Source: Candidatus Thalassarchaeaceae archaeon
Lineage (GTDB): Archaea > Thermoplasmatota > Poseidoniia > Poseidoniales > Thalassarchaeaceae
Direction: 5' to 3'
Assembly: GCA_045568075.1 (NCBI GenBank)
Contig: JBJLBP010000001.1
Location: 750,001-782,000 of the forward strand
Length of the DNA: 32,000 bases
The notes beneath the pieces were generated by a model, which saw only the letters and a program-made list of their open reading frames with translations, was not told where the DNA came from and searched no databases. Position 1 is the first letter of the stretch; every line of letters starts with the position of its first letter. The position numbers were made by a program, and so were the translations under genes. Shown piece by piece: positions 13,442 through 21,150 of this stretch.

Positions 13442-14179
13442 CTATTCAGTGCCATTGTCAGAGCCGTCATCTTCGCCTTCATCGGTGCCATCGCCTTCCT
13501 GTTGCTCCGAAATTTCGACGATGTAGCTGATGCTAACTGAATCAGTTGTGAAGACATTGATTCCACAAGTAGCTTCCATTGAAATGGTAACATTCTCTTG
13601 CATATTTGCGAATTCCATTTGGAAATTACCCATTTCATCCATCGGGACAGCGAGTTGACTCTCTTCGATATCACCGTCGCTCCAATCGAAGACACAGGTT
13701 TCCAATGAGCTATGAGTTAGATTTCCTGAGAGAATCGCGTCGTCACCATACTGGATATTGGTCACGAGGGTGTCGAGGATAATCTCGGTGATTCCCTCTT
13801 CGGGGTAAGTTATTGAGAATTCAGTGAACCATCGCGTCTCTTGTTCTAGTTGATCCTTAGCGAATACCTTGAGCGCATGATCGCCGACTCCTAGTTGGCT
13901 GATATCGACGGTCAACTTTCCATCATCATCGAGAAATGCATTGGCTACTCTGTCTCCGTCCAGAGTCACGTCGAGGACAACATCTTCGAGATTTTCATCA
14001 CCTATGGTGATGGTAATTGTGTTGACCTCTCCGATGACGAAGCTTCCAGGTTCTTCGCCAGAGATTATTGGCGGCTGATCGGGTTGCACACCCTCGATAT
14101 CGAGGTAGAATATGCCTATCAAGACGCTTCCAACCATCAAAGCCGCGAGGCCGATACTACGAACCTGTACGGACTCCAT
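13442..14179 (-). CDS. N-terminal signal-anchor + beta-sandwich (Ig-like) domains + acidic linker; upstream part of the TAG-interrupted YHYH gene
   Basis: MESVQVRSIGLAALMVGSVLIGIFY signal anchor, beta-rich repeats (VNTITITIGDENLEDVVLDVTLDG...), and an ending in an acidic linker ...EGEDDGSDNGTE followed by TAG (13442-13444). A TTTTTAC element lies ~25 nt upstream of ATG 14179. Confidence 0.65.
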   Translation of the reverse strand: MESVQVRSIGLAALMVGSVLIGIFYLDIEGVQPDQPPIISGEEPGSFVIGEVNTITITIGDENLEDVVLDVTLDGDRVANAFLDDDGKLTVDISQLGVGDHALKVFAKDQLEQETRWFTEFSITYPEEGITEIILDTLVTNIQYGDDAILSGNLTHSSLETCVFDWSDGDIEESQLAVPMDEMGNFQMEFANMQENVTISMEATCGINVFTTDSVSISYIVEISEQQEGDGTDEGEDDGSDNGTE

Positions 14180-14266: not shown

Positions 14267-15337
14267 TCACTCTGCAGCGAGGTTCTGCAGGTCCTCGACA
14301 AACCCATCAAGATCCCACGCAGTTCCGGTCCAAGCGATTCGCTTGCGAAGCTGCTTGTCGAGAATGAAAGTCACTGTCGAATGACCAACTTCGTATTCGC
14401 CGAGCGAATCGCTGTGCGGGTCATTTTGCTCGGCCTCGGCTGAGCCTTCAGCGACGCACATCAGAGCGTCGCCATCTGGGCGCTCATAGCCCTCATCGCA
14501 CATGCAATGTGCGCCCGCGCCATCTCCCATCACCCAGCCGTGTCCATTGCAATCGATGCCGACAGGGAGCAGAGAAGCGTTGGCTCCGTCGGCCACCCAA
14601 GCGAGATGGTCATCGTGACTTGCCATCTCGTCAAGATAACCTTCTATTGCGAGTTCCCAGGCCCACGATGATTGATTCCAACTCATCAGAGTCCATGAGG
14701 TGTCGTTGGATAATTCGGCCTCGGCAGCAGCCCTTGCCTCTTCGTCGAGGTTCCCGACGGTTGCACCGATTGATAATTCAGAATTAAGATAATCAATGAC
14801 CGTCGTATTATTTCCAGCATCGAGGATAATCACTCGATTCATCGCCCCCTCTGGGGGCGTGCTGGCCTCGATGTGAGCATTGTCGACTATGACGTTCCAA
14901 GAACTGTACACGCTGACAAGAGTACTCGTTCGCTCGGCTGTTAGATGAGTCCAATCATAACCCATCGCCTCGGTCCATTCGGAAAGCCGAGCGACCGTAT
15001 CACGAGCAGGATCTATCGTTACCGACAAGAAAACAACATCGTCGCTCGCTCCACCCAGATTCTCCTGTGCCCAAGCCATATTGGCAGATATTGCCAAACA
15101 GATATCTGGGCACGTGGTATAGATAAAAGCGACAACAACAACTTTGCCTTCGAGTTCCGAGAGGGTGAATTCCTCACCATTTTGGTCTAGTAGAGTGAAG
15201 TCTGGAGCATCAGGTGGTTCTCGGTATTCTATGCCGTTGTATTCGATTTCATCATCGACTCCACCCATGCATCCAGAAAGCCATCCTGAAAGTAGCAATG
15301 CCACTAATGCCAGAGCAATCGAGCGGCGCATTTTCAT
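14267..15337 (-). CDS. SCO1/SenC-family thioredoxin-fold copper chaperone, lipoprotein, with ~170-aa insertion (paralog A)
   Basis: Signal MKMRRSIALALVALLLSGWLSGC (twin-Arg-like plus lipobox-like). SCO1 core: FTLLDQNGEEFTLSELEGKVVVVAFIYTTCPDICLAISANM ... VFLSVTIDPARDT ... GHSTVTFILDKQ. A long insert precedes the ligand His and contains HDDH and an EGF-like CNGHGW..GAHCMCDEGY...C segment. ATGA overlap with the upstream gene. Confidence 0.85.
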   Translation of the reverse strand: MKMRRSIALALVALLLSGWLSGCMGGVDDEIEYNGIEYREPPDAPDFTLLDQNGEEFTLSELEGKVVVVAFIYTTCPDICLAISANMAWAQENLGGASDDVVFLSVTIDPARDTVARLSEWTEAMGYDWTHLTAERTSTLVSVYSSWNVIVDNAHIEASTPPEGAMNRVIILDAGNNTTVIDYLNSELSIGATVGNLDEEARAAAEAELSNDTSWTLMSWNQSSWAWELAIEGYLDEMASHDDHLAWVADGANASLLPVGIDCNGHGWVMGDGAGAHCMCDEGYERPDGDALMCVAEGSAEAEQNDPHSDSLGEYEVGHSTVTFILDKQLRKRIAWTGTAWDLDGFVEDLQNLAAE

Positions 15338-16065
15338 TCCTCTAGAAGCATGCGGATGTCATCTAAGACCATCTCTGCATTCCAGTCGGTATCGCCCCAC
15401 CAGACACGTTGATTGAGTTGTTTATCGACGATGATTGTGCCTGTTGTGTGATCGACCCAATAGCTGAGTGGATGGTGCTTGACAGTGACGTCACCTTCCT
15501 CTGACTGCTGAGTCTCAAGCCCACATCCTTCGTCGTCTACTTCCTCACCCTCAGGTGTGTCCGCGCATATATCGAATCCGTCTGCCACACCGTCTGCATC
15601 TTGATCATCTTCGTAGGTTGCAAGGCCAACGTCGAAATTGACCCAGACTGGCTGAAGTTCATCGAGGCTACCTGTTAGATGTGGCCAGTGCAAGCCTCGG
15701 TCATCCGCGTATTCCTTGAGCACCGTCGAGTTATCGGTCCAGGGGTCGACAGTGATTGAGAGGATGGCTACATTGTCGCCGTAATCATCGCCAAGTTCGG
15801 CAGCGACATAGTGTAGGTTGGCGCTTACGATGGGGCAGATGTCCGGGCAACGAGTGAAGAGGAAGGCGATGACGATGACCTTTCCTTCTAGGTCGCTGAG
15901 TTGATACGGTTCGCCATTCTCATCGAAAAGTACGAAATCTTCCACAGCAACAATCGGTTCAATTTCCTCTCCGTAGAACGGGCTCTCTTCTTGGCCTAAG
16001 CAGCCAGCGAACAGTAAGATTGCAGTTACGAGTATAGCGCTCAGTGCCTTATTTCGCTGAATCAT
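15334..16065 (-). CDS. SCO1/SenC-family thioredoxin-fold copper chaperone, lipoprotein, with ~45-aa acidic insertion (paralog B)
   Basis: Signal MIQRNKALSAILVTAILLFAGC. Core: FVLFDENGEPYQLSDLEGKVIVIAFLFTRCPDICPIVSANL ... ILSITVDPWTDN ... VDHTTGTIIVDKQ. The insert DDQDADGVADGFDICADTPEGEEVDDEGCG resembles a thrombospondin-type-3/Ca-loop. ATGA overlaps at both ends (16062-16065, 15334-15337). Confidence 0.88.
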   Translation of the reverse strand: MIQRNKALSAILVTAILLFAGCLGQEESPFYGEEIEPIVAVEDFVLFDENGEPYQLSDLEGKVIVIAFLFTRCPDICPIVSANLHYVAAELGDDYGDNVAILSITVDPWTDNSTVLKEYADDRGLHWPHLTGSLDELQPVWVNFDVGLATYEDDQDADGVADGFDICADTPEGEEVDDEGCGLETQQSEEGDVTVKHHPLSYWVDHTTGTIIVDKQLNQRVWWGDTDWNAEMVLDDIRMLLEE

Positions 16066-16640
16066 TCCTCTTCACTCCTTTCACTTGATTCCTTCGAACC
16101 TTCGATGTTTTTTAGAATCCACAGGCAAGCGGCGGCGCCGAAAGCGAGAATGGCTCCACTGAGTAGAATGCTTTGCATGTCAGTTTCTTCGTCGGCTGAA
16201 TCAGCCGGTTGTTGACCGCCACCGGGCAGAACAAAACCACCGTCTGGTGGGCCAGTCTCGGTGTGATTGTCGGCAATAACCTCGACAAGCACCGTCATCC
16301 AGTGAGTATCGTTCTGAGAGATCTGGATCTCGATTATGCGAGGTTCCCAAACCTCGGGGTCGAGCCAAATGTAGCATTCATCATCGGTGCTCATCGAATC
16401 GCTCGGTCCCGCCTCACAAACCCAATCATCAACTCCATCGGAGTTATTGTCTAGTGTCAGAGTGCGGTTGTGATTGGCTACATTGTAGAAGACGAGCGTA
16501 TCGTTTTGCTGCACTCCGGCTTCGTCAGGAGCCACCGATGAGTTGCGCATGATGAACGAAAATGAGTTAGCGCCGTGCGCAGATGCAACAGGAGCCAACA
16601 ATAGCACGGCGACAATTGCGAAGGCAAGTCGCTTGCGCAA
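16062..16640 (-). CDS. Small secreted, C-terminally anchored protein with predicted mature N-terminal His (copy P1); possible cupredoxin-like/copper-binding domain
   Basis: Preferred start is TTG 16640, with GAGGTGA 5 nt upstream overlapping the stop of the preceding gene; GTG 16649 is the alternative. Signal MRKRLAFAIVAVLLLAPVASA|HG. It carries NDTLVFYNVANHNRTLTLDNNSDG, a CE-x11-DEC loop, an acidic linker and the TM helix ILLSGAILAFGAAACLWIL. Paralogous to 20539-21150. Confidence 0.65.
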   Translation of the reverse strand: MRKRLAFAIVAVLLLAPVASAHGANSFSFIMRNSSVAPDEAGVQQNDTLVFYNVANHNRTLTLDNNSDGVDDWVCEAGPSDSMSTDDECYIWLDPEVWEPRIIEIQISQNDTHWMTVLVEVIADNHTETGPPDGGFVLPGGGQQPADSADEETDMQSILLSGAILAFGAAACLWILKNIEGSKESSERSEEE

Positions 16641-16650
16641 TTGATTCACC

Positions 16651-18618
16651 TCATTCGTCAGTAGCCTCGGCCTCGTCGGACCAAAGAGCAGGATAGTGGT
16701 AGCGTGGGTCGTAGTCCTCATCGAACTGAACCACGTAGACTCCACTAACCATCTCAGAGATCATAACGAAGCCTCGTGGGTCGTATTGCAGACCCCAATC
16801 GAATGGAATCATGCACGAGGCCCAGCAATCAGCCATATCGTAGCCGAGTTCGCTCGCTGGGTCATCTATCCAAGTAGGTCCCGCAGGAAGGTAGTAGCCG
16901 AGAGTATGAGTCGGAGCGAGTTCAGAAATCGCTTGGAATCCTCGCTCAGGTTCTGGGTAACCATTCTCCCAGACAAGCTCTTCCCAAATATGTCCATGGT
17001 CAGTTATCCACACACCTGCGTGATAGTGCGTCCAATAGACGTGACCACTCAACCCAGTATCTCCATTGTGAGGGCTGAATATGTATCCGCCTGGGATGTA
17101 GTGGTGAGGGTGAGTTGTCCCGTCAGCTAGGGTACTTTCGCCAGGTAACTTCCACTTGGAAACCAAGAACGGTTTGGCAGGATCAGTTGTATCTATGGTC
17201 CAAATGAATCCTGTATGGTTTGCGTTGGATCCATATTCCGGAGCGATGTAAGTGTAGTGCCTCCAATTCTCACTGTATGTGGCATCAGTAGGTCCTGTTC
17301 CACAATGTTCAGGCCAGGTCTCTACAGGGTCATACTCACTGATTCCCGAACAAATAAGATTGTCTTGTGGGACCGCATAGTGGATGTTGTCATTTCCATC
17401 ATTTGCGTTCAACCAAACATCAGGATCCATGTTTGCATGACCACCGCCATCAGGCCCATACCATCCTGCATCATCTGTGGGGCAACCGAGCCAGCGGCCG
17501 GTTTCAGGGGGCCAGGAAATACCTAGAGGGTCTCCGATTTGAGGCGGTTCAGAGACATCAACAAGTCTCAACCCCGCGCCCCAGTAGGAGACCGCCAGCA
17601 TCTTTTGTTTGGTTATCGGGTGTATGAAAAACACGTTATCGTGGTTGAAAATAGATCCTCCACAAGTTGTCTGAGGTTCGGGAGTATATCCTCCCCAACG
17701 AATGATTTCTCTGCTTGCGTTTTGTTGCTCATTGTTGTTTGTAGGATTCAGCCCTTCGAAATCGATTAGTGCATAGAATACTTGAGTGCCTTTGTAGAAT
17801 GTCCCACTTGATCCCTCAACCATTTCTGGATAAGGGTCCGCACCGAATAGGAAAAGGTGACAATCATCTTGCCAAAGGGCAGTTGGATTTGCAGGCTCCC
17901 AATCGCAATAGACATGCAGGTCTTGGTTGTGGAAGCCTGCTGGAGGATTATCCCATTCCGCGACCTTAATCGGACTCGTCTTGTCTCCAACATAAATCAG
18001 GTCAAGTCTATTTGCTCCGCTGTTTGCATCGTCATCATTTGGTATAGGGTCTAGTTCTGAGTTGGTTAATTCGTGATTTACCAAAACCCAATTATTGTCT
18101 GAGGTCACCTTGATGTCAATCATTCTAGCTATTTCTGCGTAGTAAGTTGACAGTAGTCGGATATCGTTAGGTCTGCTGATATCAAGTATTTCGAATTGGT
18201 TGTATGAAGACACGTATGCGAAGCATCCACCTGTTCCATCTCCGTAAATTTCACAATCATCTAGGAAATTTCCTTCGATTGAGATTTCTGAATTATCTCC
18301 AGGAGTAGGTCCTGTATTCTTGAATTCATCAAAACAAGGCCTTCCAGCCACGTTATCTAATTCGGCTGGAGGTTTGACATTCCCATCACAATTCAAGTTG
18401 TGATAATCAATAAGCTGAGCATTTGGAGTTGCAAGCCTGTGAGCAAGTAGATCGCTGTGCGAGTGGTTCGCGTCTTCAATCTCCATTACTGGATCGACCC
18501 ATTCCCAATCGTCGTCACTATCACCGTTTGGAGCGAAGACGCCGATGCAACCACTGAGTGGTGCTGCAAGCATCAGGAAAGTCATCAGGAGAAGTGGAAT
18601 AGAAGACAATCGGGACAT
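16651..18618 (-). CDS. LVIVD-repeat-type beta-propeller lipoprotein, His-rich (paralog A)
   Basis: Start ATG 18618 gives MSRLSSIPLLLMTFLMLAAPLSGC (lipobox-like). LVIVD-like blades: FEILDISRPNDIRLL, YWGAGLRLVDVSEPP, FIWTIDTTDPAKPFL, HYHAGVWITD, GVYVVQFDEDY. Motifs shared with 18741-20489 are listed in the findings. Confidence 0.75.
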   Translation of the reverse strand: MSRLSSIPLLLMTFLMLAAPLSGCIGVFAPNGDSDDDWEWVDPVMEIEDANHSHSDLLAHRLATPNAQLIDYHNLNCDGNVKPPAELDNVAGRPCFDEFKNTGPTPGDNSEISIEGNFLDDCEIYGDGTGGCFAYVSSYNQFEILDISRPNDIRLLSTYYAEIARMIDIKVTSDNNWVLVNHELTNSELDPIPNDDDANSGANRLDLIYVGDKTSPIKVAEWDNPPAGFHNQDLHVYCDWEPANPTALWQDDCHLFLFGADPYPEMVEGSSGTFYKGTQVFYALIDFEGLNPTNNNEQQNASREIIRWGGYTPEPQTTCGGSIFNHDNVFFIHPITKQKMLAVSYWGAGLRLVDVSEPPQIGDPLGISWPPETGRWLGCPTDDAGWYGPDGGGHANMDPDVWLNANDGNDNIHYAVPQDNLICSGISEYDPVETWPEHCGTGPTDATYSENWRHYTYIAPEYGSNANHTGFIWTIDTTDPAKPFLVSKWKLPGESTLADGTTHPHHYIPGGYIFSPHNGDTGLSGHVYWTHYHAGVWITDHGHIWEELVWENGYPEPERGFQAISELAPTHTLGYYLPAGPTWIDDPASELGYDMADCWASCMIPFDWGLQYDPRGFVMISEMVSGVYVVQFDEDYDPRYHYPALWSDEAEATDE

Positions 18619-20538: not shown

Positions 20539-21150
20539 ATGGACGTGGCTACTGCCCGACTGCTCATGCTCACGCTATTCCTAGGGCTACTCGCTTCGCC
20601 GTTGGTTTTGGCTCACGACCAGAAGGAATACACGGTTATTTTGGGCTCCGAGGGGGCGAGACCTGATTCGATTACGGCTGATGTTCTGGTCGAGACCGAC
20701 TCGATTTTCTTTAGGAATCATGATTCAAGGGATGAGGCAAGGCACCGCATTCTCGTCGATGCAGATGAGGACGGTGCCTTCGAAGGGATTGACGATTTCG
20801 ATACTGGTTGGATGGTTACCTCTTGCGAGTTGAATGAAACTGGACACAAGGTCGATGAGAATTGCCAAACAGCTGCTATGGTCTTGTTAGCCCCTGAAAG
20901 TGGCTTGTTACCCGGAAATGTCTCGATGATGCATCAGGTTGAGTTCGAGGGTGAACTGACTGAGACTCCATTCTACGCCCTTTACTCGGTCGATGATCAT
21001 ACCATGTCGAATGGGCCGGTTACCCCTGGGACAGATGCCGAGTCCGAGTCGGACTCTGATGATTCGATTCTGCGGGCTGTCATCATCTCTGCTGGAGCGA
21101 TTGCCCTCGTGCTCGTCTCCCGACTCACCAACCCTTCTAGGGATGAGTGA
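20539..21150 (+). CDS. Small secreted, C-terminally anchored protein with predicted mature N-terminal His (copy P2), divergent from the propeller operon
   Basis: ATG 20539 gives MDVATARLLMLTLFLGLLASPLVLA|HD. It carries TDSIFFRNHDSRDEARHRILVDADEDG, a CE-x10-DENC loop, an acidic Ser/Asp linker and the TM helix AVIISAGAIALVLV. Same architecture as 16062-16640. Confidence 0.65.
   Translation: MDVATARLLMLTLFLGLLASPLVLAHDQKEYTVILGSEGARPDSITADVLVETDSIFFRNHDSRDEARHRILVDADEDGAFEGIDDFDTGWMVTSCELNETGHKVDENCQTAAMVLLAPESGLLPGNVSMMHQVEFEGELTETPFYALYSVDDHTMSNGPVTPGTDAESESDSDDSILRAVIISAGAIALVLVSRLTNPSRDE

Follow-up and report, generated by a model that had tools for sequence, protein, structure and literature searches.

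The described systems closest to the proteins considered here are small beta-sandwich proteins that carry a histidine at the mature N-terminus. In the C0-1 type of CopC, Cu(II) is bound by two His and one Asp, the N-terminal His included (PMC12362106), with His1 and His91 serving as ligands in the CopC of P. syringae (PMC9182242). YcnI of B. subtilis (PF07987; 7MEK) is encoded in a copper operon and combines an N-terminal His, a cupredoxin-like domain, a flexible region and, at the C-terminus, a transmembrane helix; it has been proposed to be a Cu(II) carrier, and the DUF1775 domains to which it belongs are spread throughout bacterial phyla (PMC8424229). In the anglerases Ang-1 and Ang-2 a flexible tether keeps an N-terminal-His beta-sandwich at the membrane, and the signal-strapping study that describes them shows that metal binding, though not always of copper, can be predicted reliably from a post-signal His, which is conserved at 65-79% in its families (PMC12537917). 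PmoD has an N-terminal cupredoxin-like domain followed by a C-terminal transmembrane helix (PMC6189053). Here we report on two small proteins, P1 and P2, encoded within a stretch of 32,000 nt (the window; positions 750,001 to 782,000 of contig JBJLBP010000001.1, assembly GCA_045568075.1) from a Candidatus Thalassarchaeaceae archaeon, a member of the Poseidoniales (marine Group II) with a 1.6 Mb genome in one contig. The two proteins lie in a cluster with two SCO1/SenC proteins and two LVIVD beta-propellers, and their most likely role is to keep copper for a surface enzyme system that has not been described before. Coordinates throughout are those of the window, and residue numbers follow P1 unless P2 is stated. 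The two genes are as follows:

16062..16640, minus strand: P1 gene, 192 residues, TTG start; its stop codon overlaps the start of SCO1-B (ATGA)
20539..21150, plus strand: P2 gene, 203 residues, ATG start at 20539; divergent from propeller B over 49 nt

The initial annotation, made from the DNA letters alone, had proposed a two-copy family at these positions from a by-eye alignment, and each element of that proposal that could be checked by computation was borne out. Both open reading frames are present, and a search of the host genome identified exactly two family copies, P1 and P2. By pairwise BLASTP the two are weakly similar (21% identity, E 0.002), and the comparison of their family profiles with hhalign gave a probability of 97% (E 1.1e-10) and reproduced the register of the earlier alignment, from the Ala-His junction through (N/T)D(T/S)hxFxN, DxDxDG and the C...C loop to DxH. 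As judged from these profiles, P1 and P2 are true paralogues. The invariant columns of the joint alignment are A21, H22, P38, D47, N53, C75, C89, D124 and H126. The TTG start of P1 at 16640 is preceded by GGTGA with a 5-nt spacer and lies 10 nt past the upstream propeller gene's stop; translation could also begin at a GTG at 16649, which leaves the mature protein unchanged.

At E <= 0.01, 19 homologues were identified for P1 and 185 for P2, with the identity of relatives dropping to 38-46% for both, and a joint-profile search of 1.84 billion representative proteins returned 169 at E <= 1e-3 and 102 at E <= 1e-10. Whole-genome searches detected the family in 35 of the 36 genomes of the taxonomic family to which the host belongs, in 41 of 58 genomes of its sister family and in all ten genomes of a third family of the same class, and just four marginal matches were obtained from 296 other genomes of the phylum. 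Among the genomes searched the family was found only in the class Poseidoniia. Scans of P1 and P2 against Pfam and NCBIfam yielded nothing meaningful, and a profile search of the PDB with the family gave nothing significant, the best matches being a multicopper oxidase (E 0.35) and plastocyanin (E 1.4). All of the database source names seen for family members read 'hypothetical protein', and no account of the family was found in the literature searched; titles and abstracts on Poseidoniales and cupredoxins concerned Lutacidiplasmatales and ammonia-oxidising archaea only and did not include this family.

The anatomy of the two proteins, derived from Kyte-Doolittle hydropathy, the family alignment and AlphaFold2 (AF2) models, with confidence given as the predicted local distance difference test (pLDDT), is as follows:

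16578..16640, minus strand: P1 predicted signal peptide, residues 1-21, ending APVASA (hydropathy and the family-wide -3/-1 rule)
16575..16577, minus strand: P1 His22 codon (cac), predicted mature residue 1 (family alignment)
16257..16577, minus strand: P1 predicted cupredoxin-fold domain, residues 22-128, eight strands, core pLDDT about 90
16374..16418, minus strand: P1 Cys75...Cys89 loop, CEAGPSDSMSTDDEC, with the invariant Cys pair, a probable disulfide
16263..16271, minus strand: P1 Asp124-Asn-His126 (Asp-x-His), directly past the last strand
16179..16256, minus strand: P1 acidic Gly/Pro-rich linker, residues 129-154, pLDDT below 50
16110..16178, minus strand: P1 predicted C-terminal transmembrane helix, residues 155-177, then K/R and an acidic tail ending EEE
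20614..20616, plus strand: P2 His26 codon, predicted mature residue 1 (SPLVLA/HDQKEY; family alignment)
20614..21006, plus strand: P2 predicted cupredoxin-like domain, residues 26-156, with Cys96/Cys109 and with His69 at the classical cupredoxin ligand-1 position
20992..21000, plus strand: P2 Asp152-Asp-His154 (Asp-x-His; family alignment)
21058..21135, plus strand: P2 predicted C-terminal transmembrane helix, residues 174-199 (hydropathy and AF2 helix)

Conservation was assessed in 91 near-full-length representatives, of which 87 could be aligned at position +1, and in a set of 70 intact representatives. In the 91, position -1 is Ala in 77 and Gly in 7, position -3 is Val in 36, Ala in 33, Thr in 6, Ser in 5 and Gly in 2 (82 in all), and position +1 is His in 80 and Asp in 7, with leaders before that residue spanning 19-41 residues. 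Small residues at -1 and -3 in at least 82 of the 87, together with a conserved His at +1 over leaders of such varied length, lead us to infer that signal peptidase I cleaves at this point and leaves His as mature residue 1 (hereafter His1). The AxA-type site exposing a His that the initial annotation predicted is therefore kept family-wide, and the conservation check it called for came out at 80 of 87 aligned representatives and 63 of 70 intact ones, the remaining seven of the latter having Asp.

Other features follow the same pattern. The most conserved positions include His1, Asp-x-His, the Cys pair, Pro38 and a DxDxDG-like loop (D64 in 79 and G69 in 74 of the 91). The Cys pair, flagged earlier as a CE...C loop, is present in 87 and 86 of the 91 at its two positions and in all 70 intact representatives, and in the intact set the His of Asp-x-His (His126) is kept in 69 and its Asp (Asp124) in 60. 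One detail had to be corrected: the His assigned to a strand after the Cys loop sits instead in Asp-x-His, immediately past the last strand in both proteins. The acidic linker and the single C-terminal transmembrane helix were recovered by hydropathy and as AF2 helices, P1 and P2 each having two hydrophobic segments, the signal peptide and the C-terminal helix, the latter followed by K/R and an acidic tail. Across the family the linker is 25-45 residues long and acidic, and in some relatives it is rich in His; the protein as a whole is highly acidic, with many N-glycosylation sequons. Many members end in EEE, EE or DE directly after the transmembrane helix (in P1, 16062-16109), and SCO1-B ends ...LLEE; such tails may act as a tag for cytoplasmic retention or sorting that the proteins share, or may reflect plain acidic proteome composition. 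A PGF-CTERM/archaeosortase signal was ruled out, there being no PGF motif and the helix being followed by a charged tail of 10-20 residues.

In the AF2 model of P1, eight strands make up a confident core (residues 26-122, pLDDT about 90), and all 50 of the model's best Foldseek matches in the PDB are cupredoxins. The top match is the B. anthracis Cupredoxin_1 protein 4HCF (E 6e-5, template modelling score (TM-score) about 0.65), and the others include plastocyanins, pseudoazurin, the EfeO Cup domain, CuA domains, N2O reductase and the purple cupredoxin of Nitrosopumilus, with target TM-scores of 0.6-0.69. The initial annotation's suggestion of a cupredoxin strand pattern thus proved apt. The P1 model shows what is predicted to be a plastocyanin-type cupredoxin sandwich from which the type-1 site has been lost: neither model nor alignments contain the type-1 ligand loop, the turn between strands 7 and 8 being only two residues (P1 N110-D111) with no conserved Cys, His or Met, and a PF00127 scan of family members gave no match. 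At the position of the first classical ligand, members of the P1 clade have I, L or V. Outside that clade the same position is His or Met in 39 of 47 (His69 in P2), with a nearby Asp in 44 of 47, and since this residue is retained, P2-type proteins may hold a second metal site there. The P2 model is mediocre and includes two long helices; cupredoxins appeared lower down among its matches at E of about 0.04-0.2, and P2 was assigned to the cupredoxin fold because of its hhalign homology with P1. The top Foldseek matches of P2, to phage baseplate proteins, were discarded as spurious (root-mean-square deviation about 10 A, TM-scores 0.2-0.3, from a mediocre model). An enzyme like the lytic polysaccharide monooxygenases (LPMOs) was ruled out by the size of the core (roughly 105 residues versus 170 or more), by the fold matches and by the lack of any LPMO match.

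How might such a protein bind a metal? The chain termini of cupredoxins both emerge at the pole opposite the classical site. In the P1 model His1 precedes strand 1 by four residues, while strand 8 is followed at two to four residues by Asp-x-His, and in view of these short spacings in sequence and the shared pole, the two elements can plausibly meet in one site. An N-terminal His offers two nitrogen donors, and the addition of a second His and an Asp would give the Cu(II) ligand set of CopC C0-1, which the family matches as a sequence pattern (N-terminal His 63/70, Asp 60/70, second His 69/70). We consider that a transition metal is probably bound through His1. In the scheme that we propose, the proteins would be exported by Sec and cut by signal peptidase at AxA/H to expose His1; a sandwich of roughly 100 residues, of plastocyanin type and without a type-1 site, would then carry a new Cu(II) site, exposed to solvent and of the histidine-brace or CopC C0-1 type, in which the amine and imidazole of His1 combine with the Asp-x-His past the last strand. 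General knowledge of the fold would place this site at the membrane-proximal pole, where the chain ends emerge, and the acidic linker and transmembrane helix would let the domain swing at the outer face of the membrane as a type-I tethered protein. Copper captured in this way might be passed to, or used with, the His-rich LVIVD propeller encoded next door and the SCO1 pair translated together with P1, as the pairing of the genes suggests. That P1 and P2 are tethered Cu(II) carriers or partners serving their propeller and SCO1 is, in our estimate, an even proposition.

The seven Asp1 variants bear on this site. The Asp of Asp-x-His is kept in one of the seven versus 59 of 63 His1 proteins, and the variants have clustered His where the domain ends as well as GHSH repeats in their linkers, with a mean of 5.1 His versus 1.5. 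This looks like ligand reshuffling around one site, a pattern that is suggestive only. Linker tracts of the GHSH, HDDD or HxH kind, which are classic metal-binding tails, were noted in some relatives (P0207, P0217, P0244, P0192, P0177 and P0212) and are concentrated in the Asp1 variants.

Several observations weigh against a copper carrier. With phylogenetic control, the covariation of His1 with Asp124 comes down to three well-supported independent pairs (sign test p >= 0.5); His22 and His126 are at the edge of the confident core, with pLDDT below 50 at residues 15-23 and from 129 onward; His1 is missing in seven of 70 members; motifs rich in Met or Cys, of the kind usual where Cu(I) is handed over to Sco, are absent from the family; and His126 of P1 falls inside an N-glycosylation sequon, NHT. 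In addition, N-terminal His sites may favour Ni or other metals (PMC12537917). This last point leads to the alternative that survives best, although we regard it as unlikely, namely that the same N-terminal-His site binds Ni, Zn, Mn, Fe or Co and acts as a tethered 'angler' that loads a binuclear or multinuclear centre of the propeller. The N-terminal-His families discovered by signal-strapping do include DUF4198, which prefers Ni, and anglerases of broad specificity that are tethered to membrane proteins (PMC12537917), and linkers rich in His and Asp and free of Met would suit Cu, Ni and Zn alike. On the other hand, the operon is built on two SCO1/SenC proteins of a copper family, both with an intact CxxxC and His, the 3N1O set of one amine, two His and one Asp is that of the CopC Cu(II) site, and an exposed brace prefers Cu(II) according to the Irving-Williams series.

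Copper remains the metal that we favour, and the cluster in which P1 and P2 reside indicates what it may be for. The neighbouring genes are as follows:

14267..15337, minus strand: SCO1-A, 356 residues; its start overlaps the SCO1-B stop
15334..16065, minus strand: SCO1-B, 243 residues, with CPDIC and His; its start overlaps the P1 stop
16651..18618, minus strand: LVIVD propeller A, about 655 residues from MSRLSS...; directly upstream of P1
18741..20489, minus strand: LVIVD propeller B, 582 residues; divergent partner of P2

ATGA overlaps join P1 to SCO1-B and SCO1-B to SCO1-A, and both SCO1 proteins retain CPDIC and the ligand His. The arrangement described earlier, with P1 translationally coupled to the SCO1 pair and P2 divergently transcribed at the same locus, could be confirmed from the first of these overlaps and from the 49 nt that separate P2 from propeller B. 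The propellers are paralogous to each other (E 8e-31) and have ten invariant His in common (HxH...H near the N-terminus, PxGxHN, HD, IHY, SPHN and YHxGxW). The 120 best relatives of propeller B in the database are 76-88% identical to it and all come from marine Group II sources; propeller B is far more conserved than P1 or P2. Neither singly nor as a profile did the propellers match the PDB by sequence, nor did they match SBP56/methanethiol oxidase, and nothing relevant on LVIVD and copper was found in the literature searched. A precedent for the gene arrangement exists in methanethiol oxidase itself, an exported copper beta-propeller enzyme with an adjacent SCO1 gene (PMC5739008). The propellers look like the real enzyme of the cluster, and propeller B is probably a metalloenzyme not described so far.

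The order P2 (divergent) propeller B-propeller A-P1-SCO1-SCO1-(Ig)-YHYH, where Ig denotes an immunoglobulin-like reading frame, is found again in relatives as distant as 45% identity. In one sister-family genome the cluster is split into a family member divergent from propeller B-SCO1 and a propeller A divergent from another member, and a genome of the third family has member-SCO1 divergent from a propeller. Of the 128 family genes in the genomes searched, 111 have a propeller match no more than 300 nt away (86 divergent, 25 on the same strand, median gap 84 nt), so that the propeller is the constant partner and SCO1 a frequent third member. The LVIVD propeller is thus a tighter partner of the family than SCO1.

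So close an association raises the possibility that P1 and P2 are redox or catalytic partner subunits of the propeller enzyme, in which a type-2 copper relays electrons or completes the active site of a 'split' NosZ-like enzyme. We rate this somewhat lower than a site for another metal. It would account for the 1:1 pairing, mostly divergent and tens of nt apart, in which each paralogue goes with its own propeller paralogue, and it accords with the N2O reductase cupredoxin domains among the Foldseek matches of P1 and with the His or Met that most P2-type members keep at the ligand-1 position; but the family lacks the ligand loop of a CuA or type-1 site, carriers are where one typically meets an exposed brace on a flexible tether, and evolution far faster than that of propeller B is unusual for an obligate catalytic subunit. 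Weakest of all is a non-catalytic structural, adaptor or Ca2+-binding surface domain (an Ig-like tether) with His serving folding or protein contacts, for which the DxDxDG-type loop, the acidity, sequons and likely disulfide of the protein and the seven members without His1 might speak, but which is improbable given that a His exactly at +1 over leaders of such different lengths is hard to explain structurally, that His-rich linkers arise precisely in the Asp1 variants and that the gene context is one of SCO1 and His-rich propellers.

Two further observations concern the DNA of the cluster. No AT-rich, TATA-like element is visible in the 49 nt between the divergent starts of propeller B and P2 (20490-20538; 30 nt in relative L008), so that either the promoters must extend into neighbouring coding regions or the transcripts are leaderless. 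Further along, a single in-frame TAG (13442-13444, minus strand; ...DNGTE-stop-QSGEERR...) separates a 245-residue Ig-like reading frame from a 384-residue YHYH one; the two form one frame of 647-682 residues in relatives L005 and L008 and are split too in L003. A pseudogene, a sequencing error, read-through and a genuine split are all possible.

Elsewhere, the host genome encodes a CuA-type COX2 (CTEYCGDDHAYM) far from the cluster and three type-1 copper domains, and its only two SCO1 genes are those beside P1. A search of the genome for PCuAC, DUF1775 and CopC identified none. The COX1 beside the CuA-type COX2 (C1:13726-15189 in the host genome; 1846-3309 in L010) has an N-terminal extension of about 190 residues that precedes the membrane core and contains a GCNCH motif and a signal peptide of its own. 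In sister-family genomes, extra SCO1 domains occur outside the cluster in long open frames of about 510-570 residues.

A broader proposal, about which we are more doubtful than about a carrier role as such, is that the propellers form a new class of His-rich extracellular metalloenzyme and that P1 and P2 are devoted to them as partners for metal loading or electron relay, one per propeller, with SCO1 helpers, and only in Poseidoniia (marine Group II/III). If true, planktonic archaea that rank among the most abundant would possess a copper-dependent enzyme system at their surface that was not known before, in which a cupredoxin scaffold has been turned to a new use as a histidine-brace site. 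Marine Group II archaea are heterotrophs of the surface ocean, abundant and uncultured. The family marks a conserved cluster, and knowledge of its metal and partner would open the propeller enzyme to experiment, with a bearing on copper demand in the ocean.

In order to compare the family with known systems, 22 members were scanned against family hidden Markov models (HMMs) at E <= 10. The initial annotation had likened P1 and P2 to YcnI, and the likeness holds at the level of architecture, with a signal peptide, an N-terminal His, a cupredoxin-like domain and, C-terminally, a transmembrane helix. Membership in DUF1775/YcnI, CopC or PCuAC, which it had raised, was not upheld, with none of the 22 members matching PF07987, PF04234 or PF04314. 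As neither the CopC nor the YcnI model matches, the family is best regarded as an analogue rather than a member.

By structure, the nearest relatives are Cupredoxin_1 (PF13473; 4HCF), EfeO Cup and plastocyanin (E 6e-5 to 3e-4, target TM-scores 0.6-0.69), with which the family has the (G/N)D(T/S)hxFxN strand motif in common. Five of the 22 members match PF13473 below threshold (best E 0.025), which does not amount to membership. In contrast to Cupredoxin_1 and plastocyanin, the family is without the type-1 Cys-His-Met loop, keeps the ligand-1 His only outside the P1 clade, and adds His1/Asp-x-His, the Cys pair and the transmembrane anchor. Its fold is thus that of a cupredoxin, as judged from the model, without the defining type-1 site.

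No sequence relation of the family to PmoD/AmoD or the anglerases was detected. PmoD is not known as an N-terminal-His protein and has a copper site of Cys, Met and His ligands, and the anglerases differ in being fused to HupE/UreJ permeases. PCuAC (PF04314, the His-brace PmoF variants included) resembles the family as a cupredoxin-like periplasmic copper chaperone working with Sco1; the family differs in having, by inspection, no H(M)X10MX21HXM motif and in being Met-poor and tethered by a transmembrane helix. In view of a genome with SCO1 and a CuA oxidase and no PCuAC, it is plausible, by analogy, that the family is a functional stand-in for PCuAC.

Like CopC C0-1 (PF04234; Methylosinus 5ICU, the YcnJ domain 8UM6 of B. 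subtilis, and P. syringae CopC), the family has a roughly 100-residue Greek-key beta-sandwich with a signal peptide for export and a putative part in copper traffic at the membrane. The Cu(II) site of CopC consists of the N-terminal His (amine and imidazole), an Asp and another His some 85-105 residues further on (PMC12362106), a pattern that the family's candidate ligands share. The family differs in that no CopC chain is among the 50 best Foldseek matches of P1, all of which are classical cupredoxins, in that its Asp-x-His comes after the last strand whereas that of CopC comes before it, and in being archaeal with a C-terminal transmembrane anchor. In P. syringae CopC, Asp89, which we take to be a ligand, lies two residues before His91. 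In B. subtilis YcnI (7MEK), which falls in DUF1775 as does Bradyrhizobium PcuD, the site is a mono-His brace with Glu50 and Trp137, whereas the family has a second His in Asp-x-His, and its alignments contain no family-wide conserved Trp, W92 and W114 being kept in the P1 clade only. The bacterial-wide distribution of DUF1775 also contrasts with a family found only in Poseidoniia. The ligand pattern of His1 and Asp-x-His is, by sequence, closer to that of CopC than to that of YcnI, and we suggest that the family works like CopC C0-1 or YcnI while being a member of neither, nor of PCuAC. Its predicted Cu(II) site would represent a third, independent N-terminal-His design on a small beta-sandwich, besides CopC and YcnI, and in this case the scaffold would be a genuine plastocyanin type that lost its blue-copper site.

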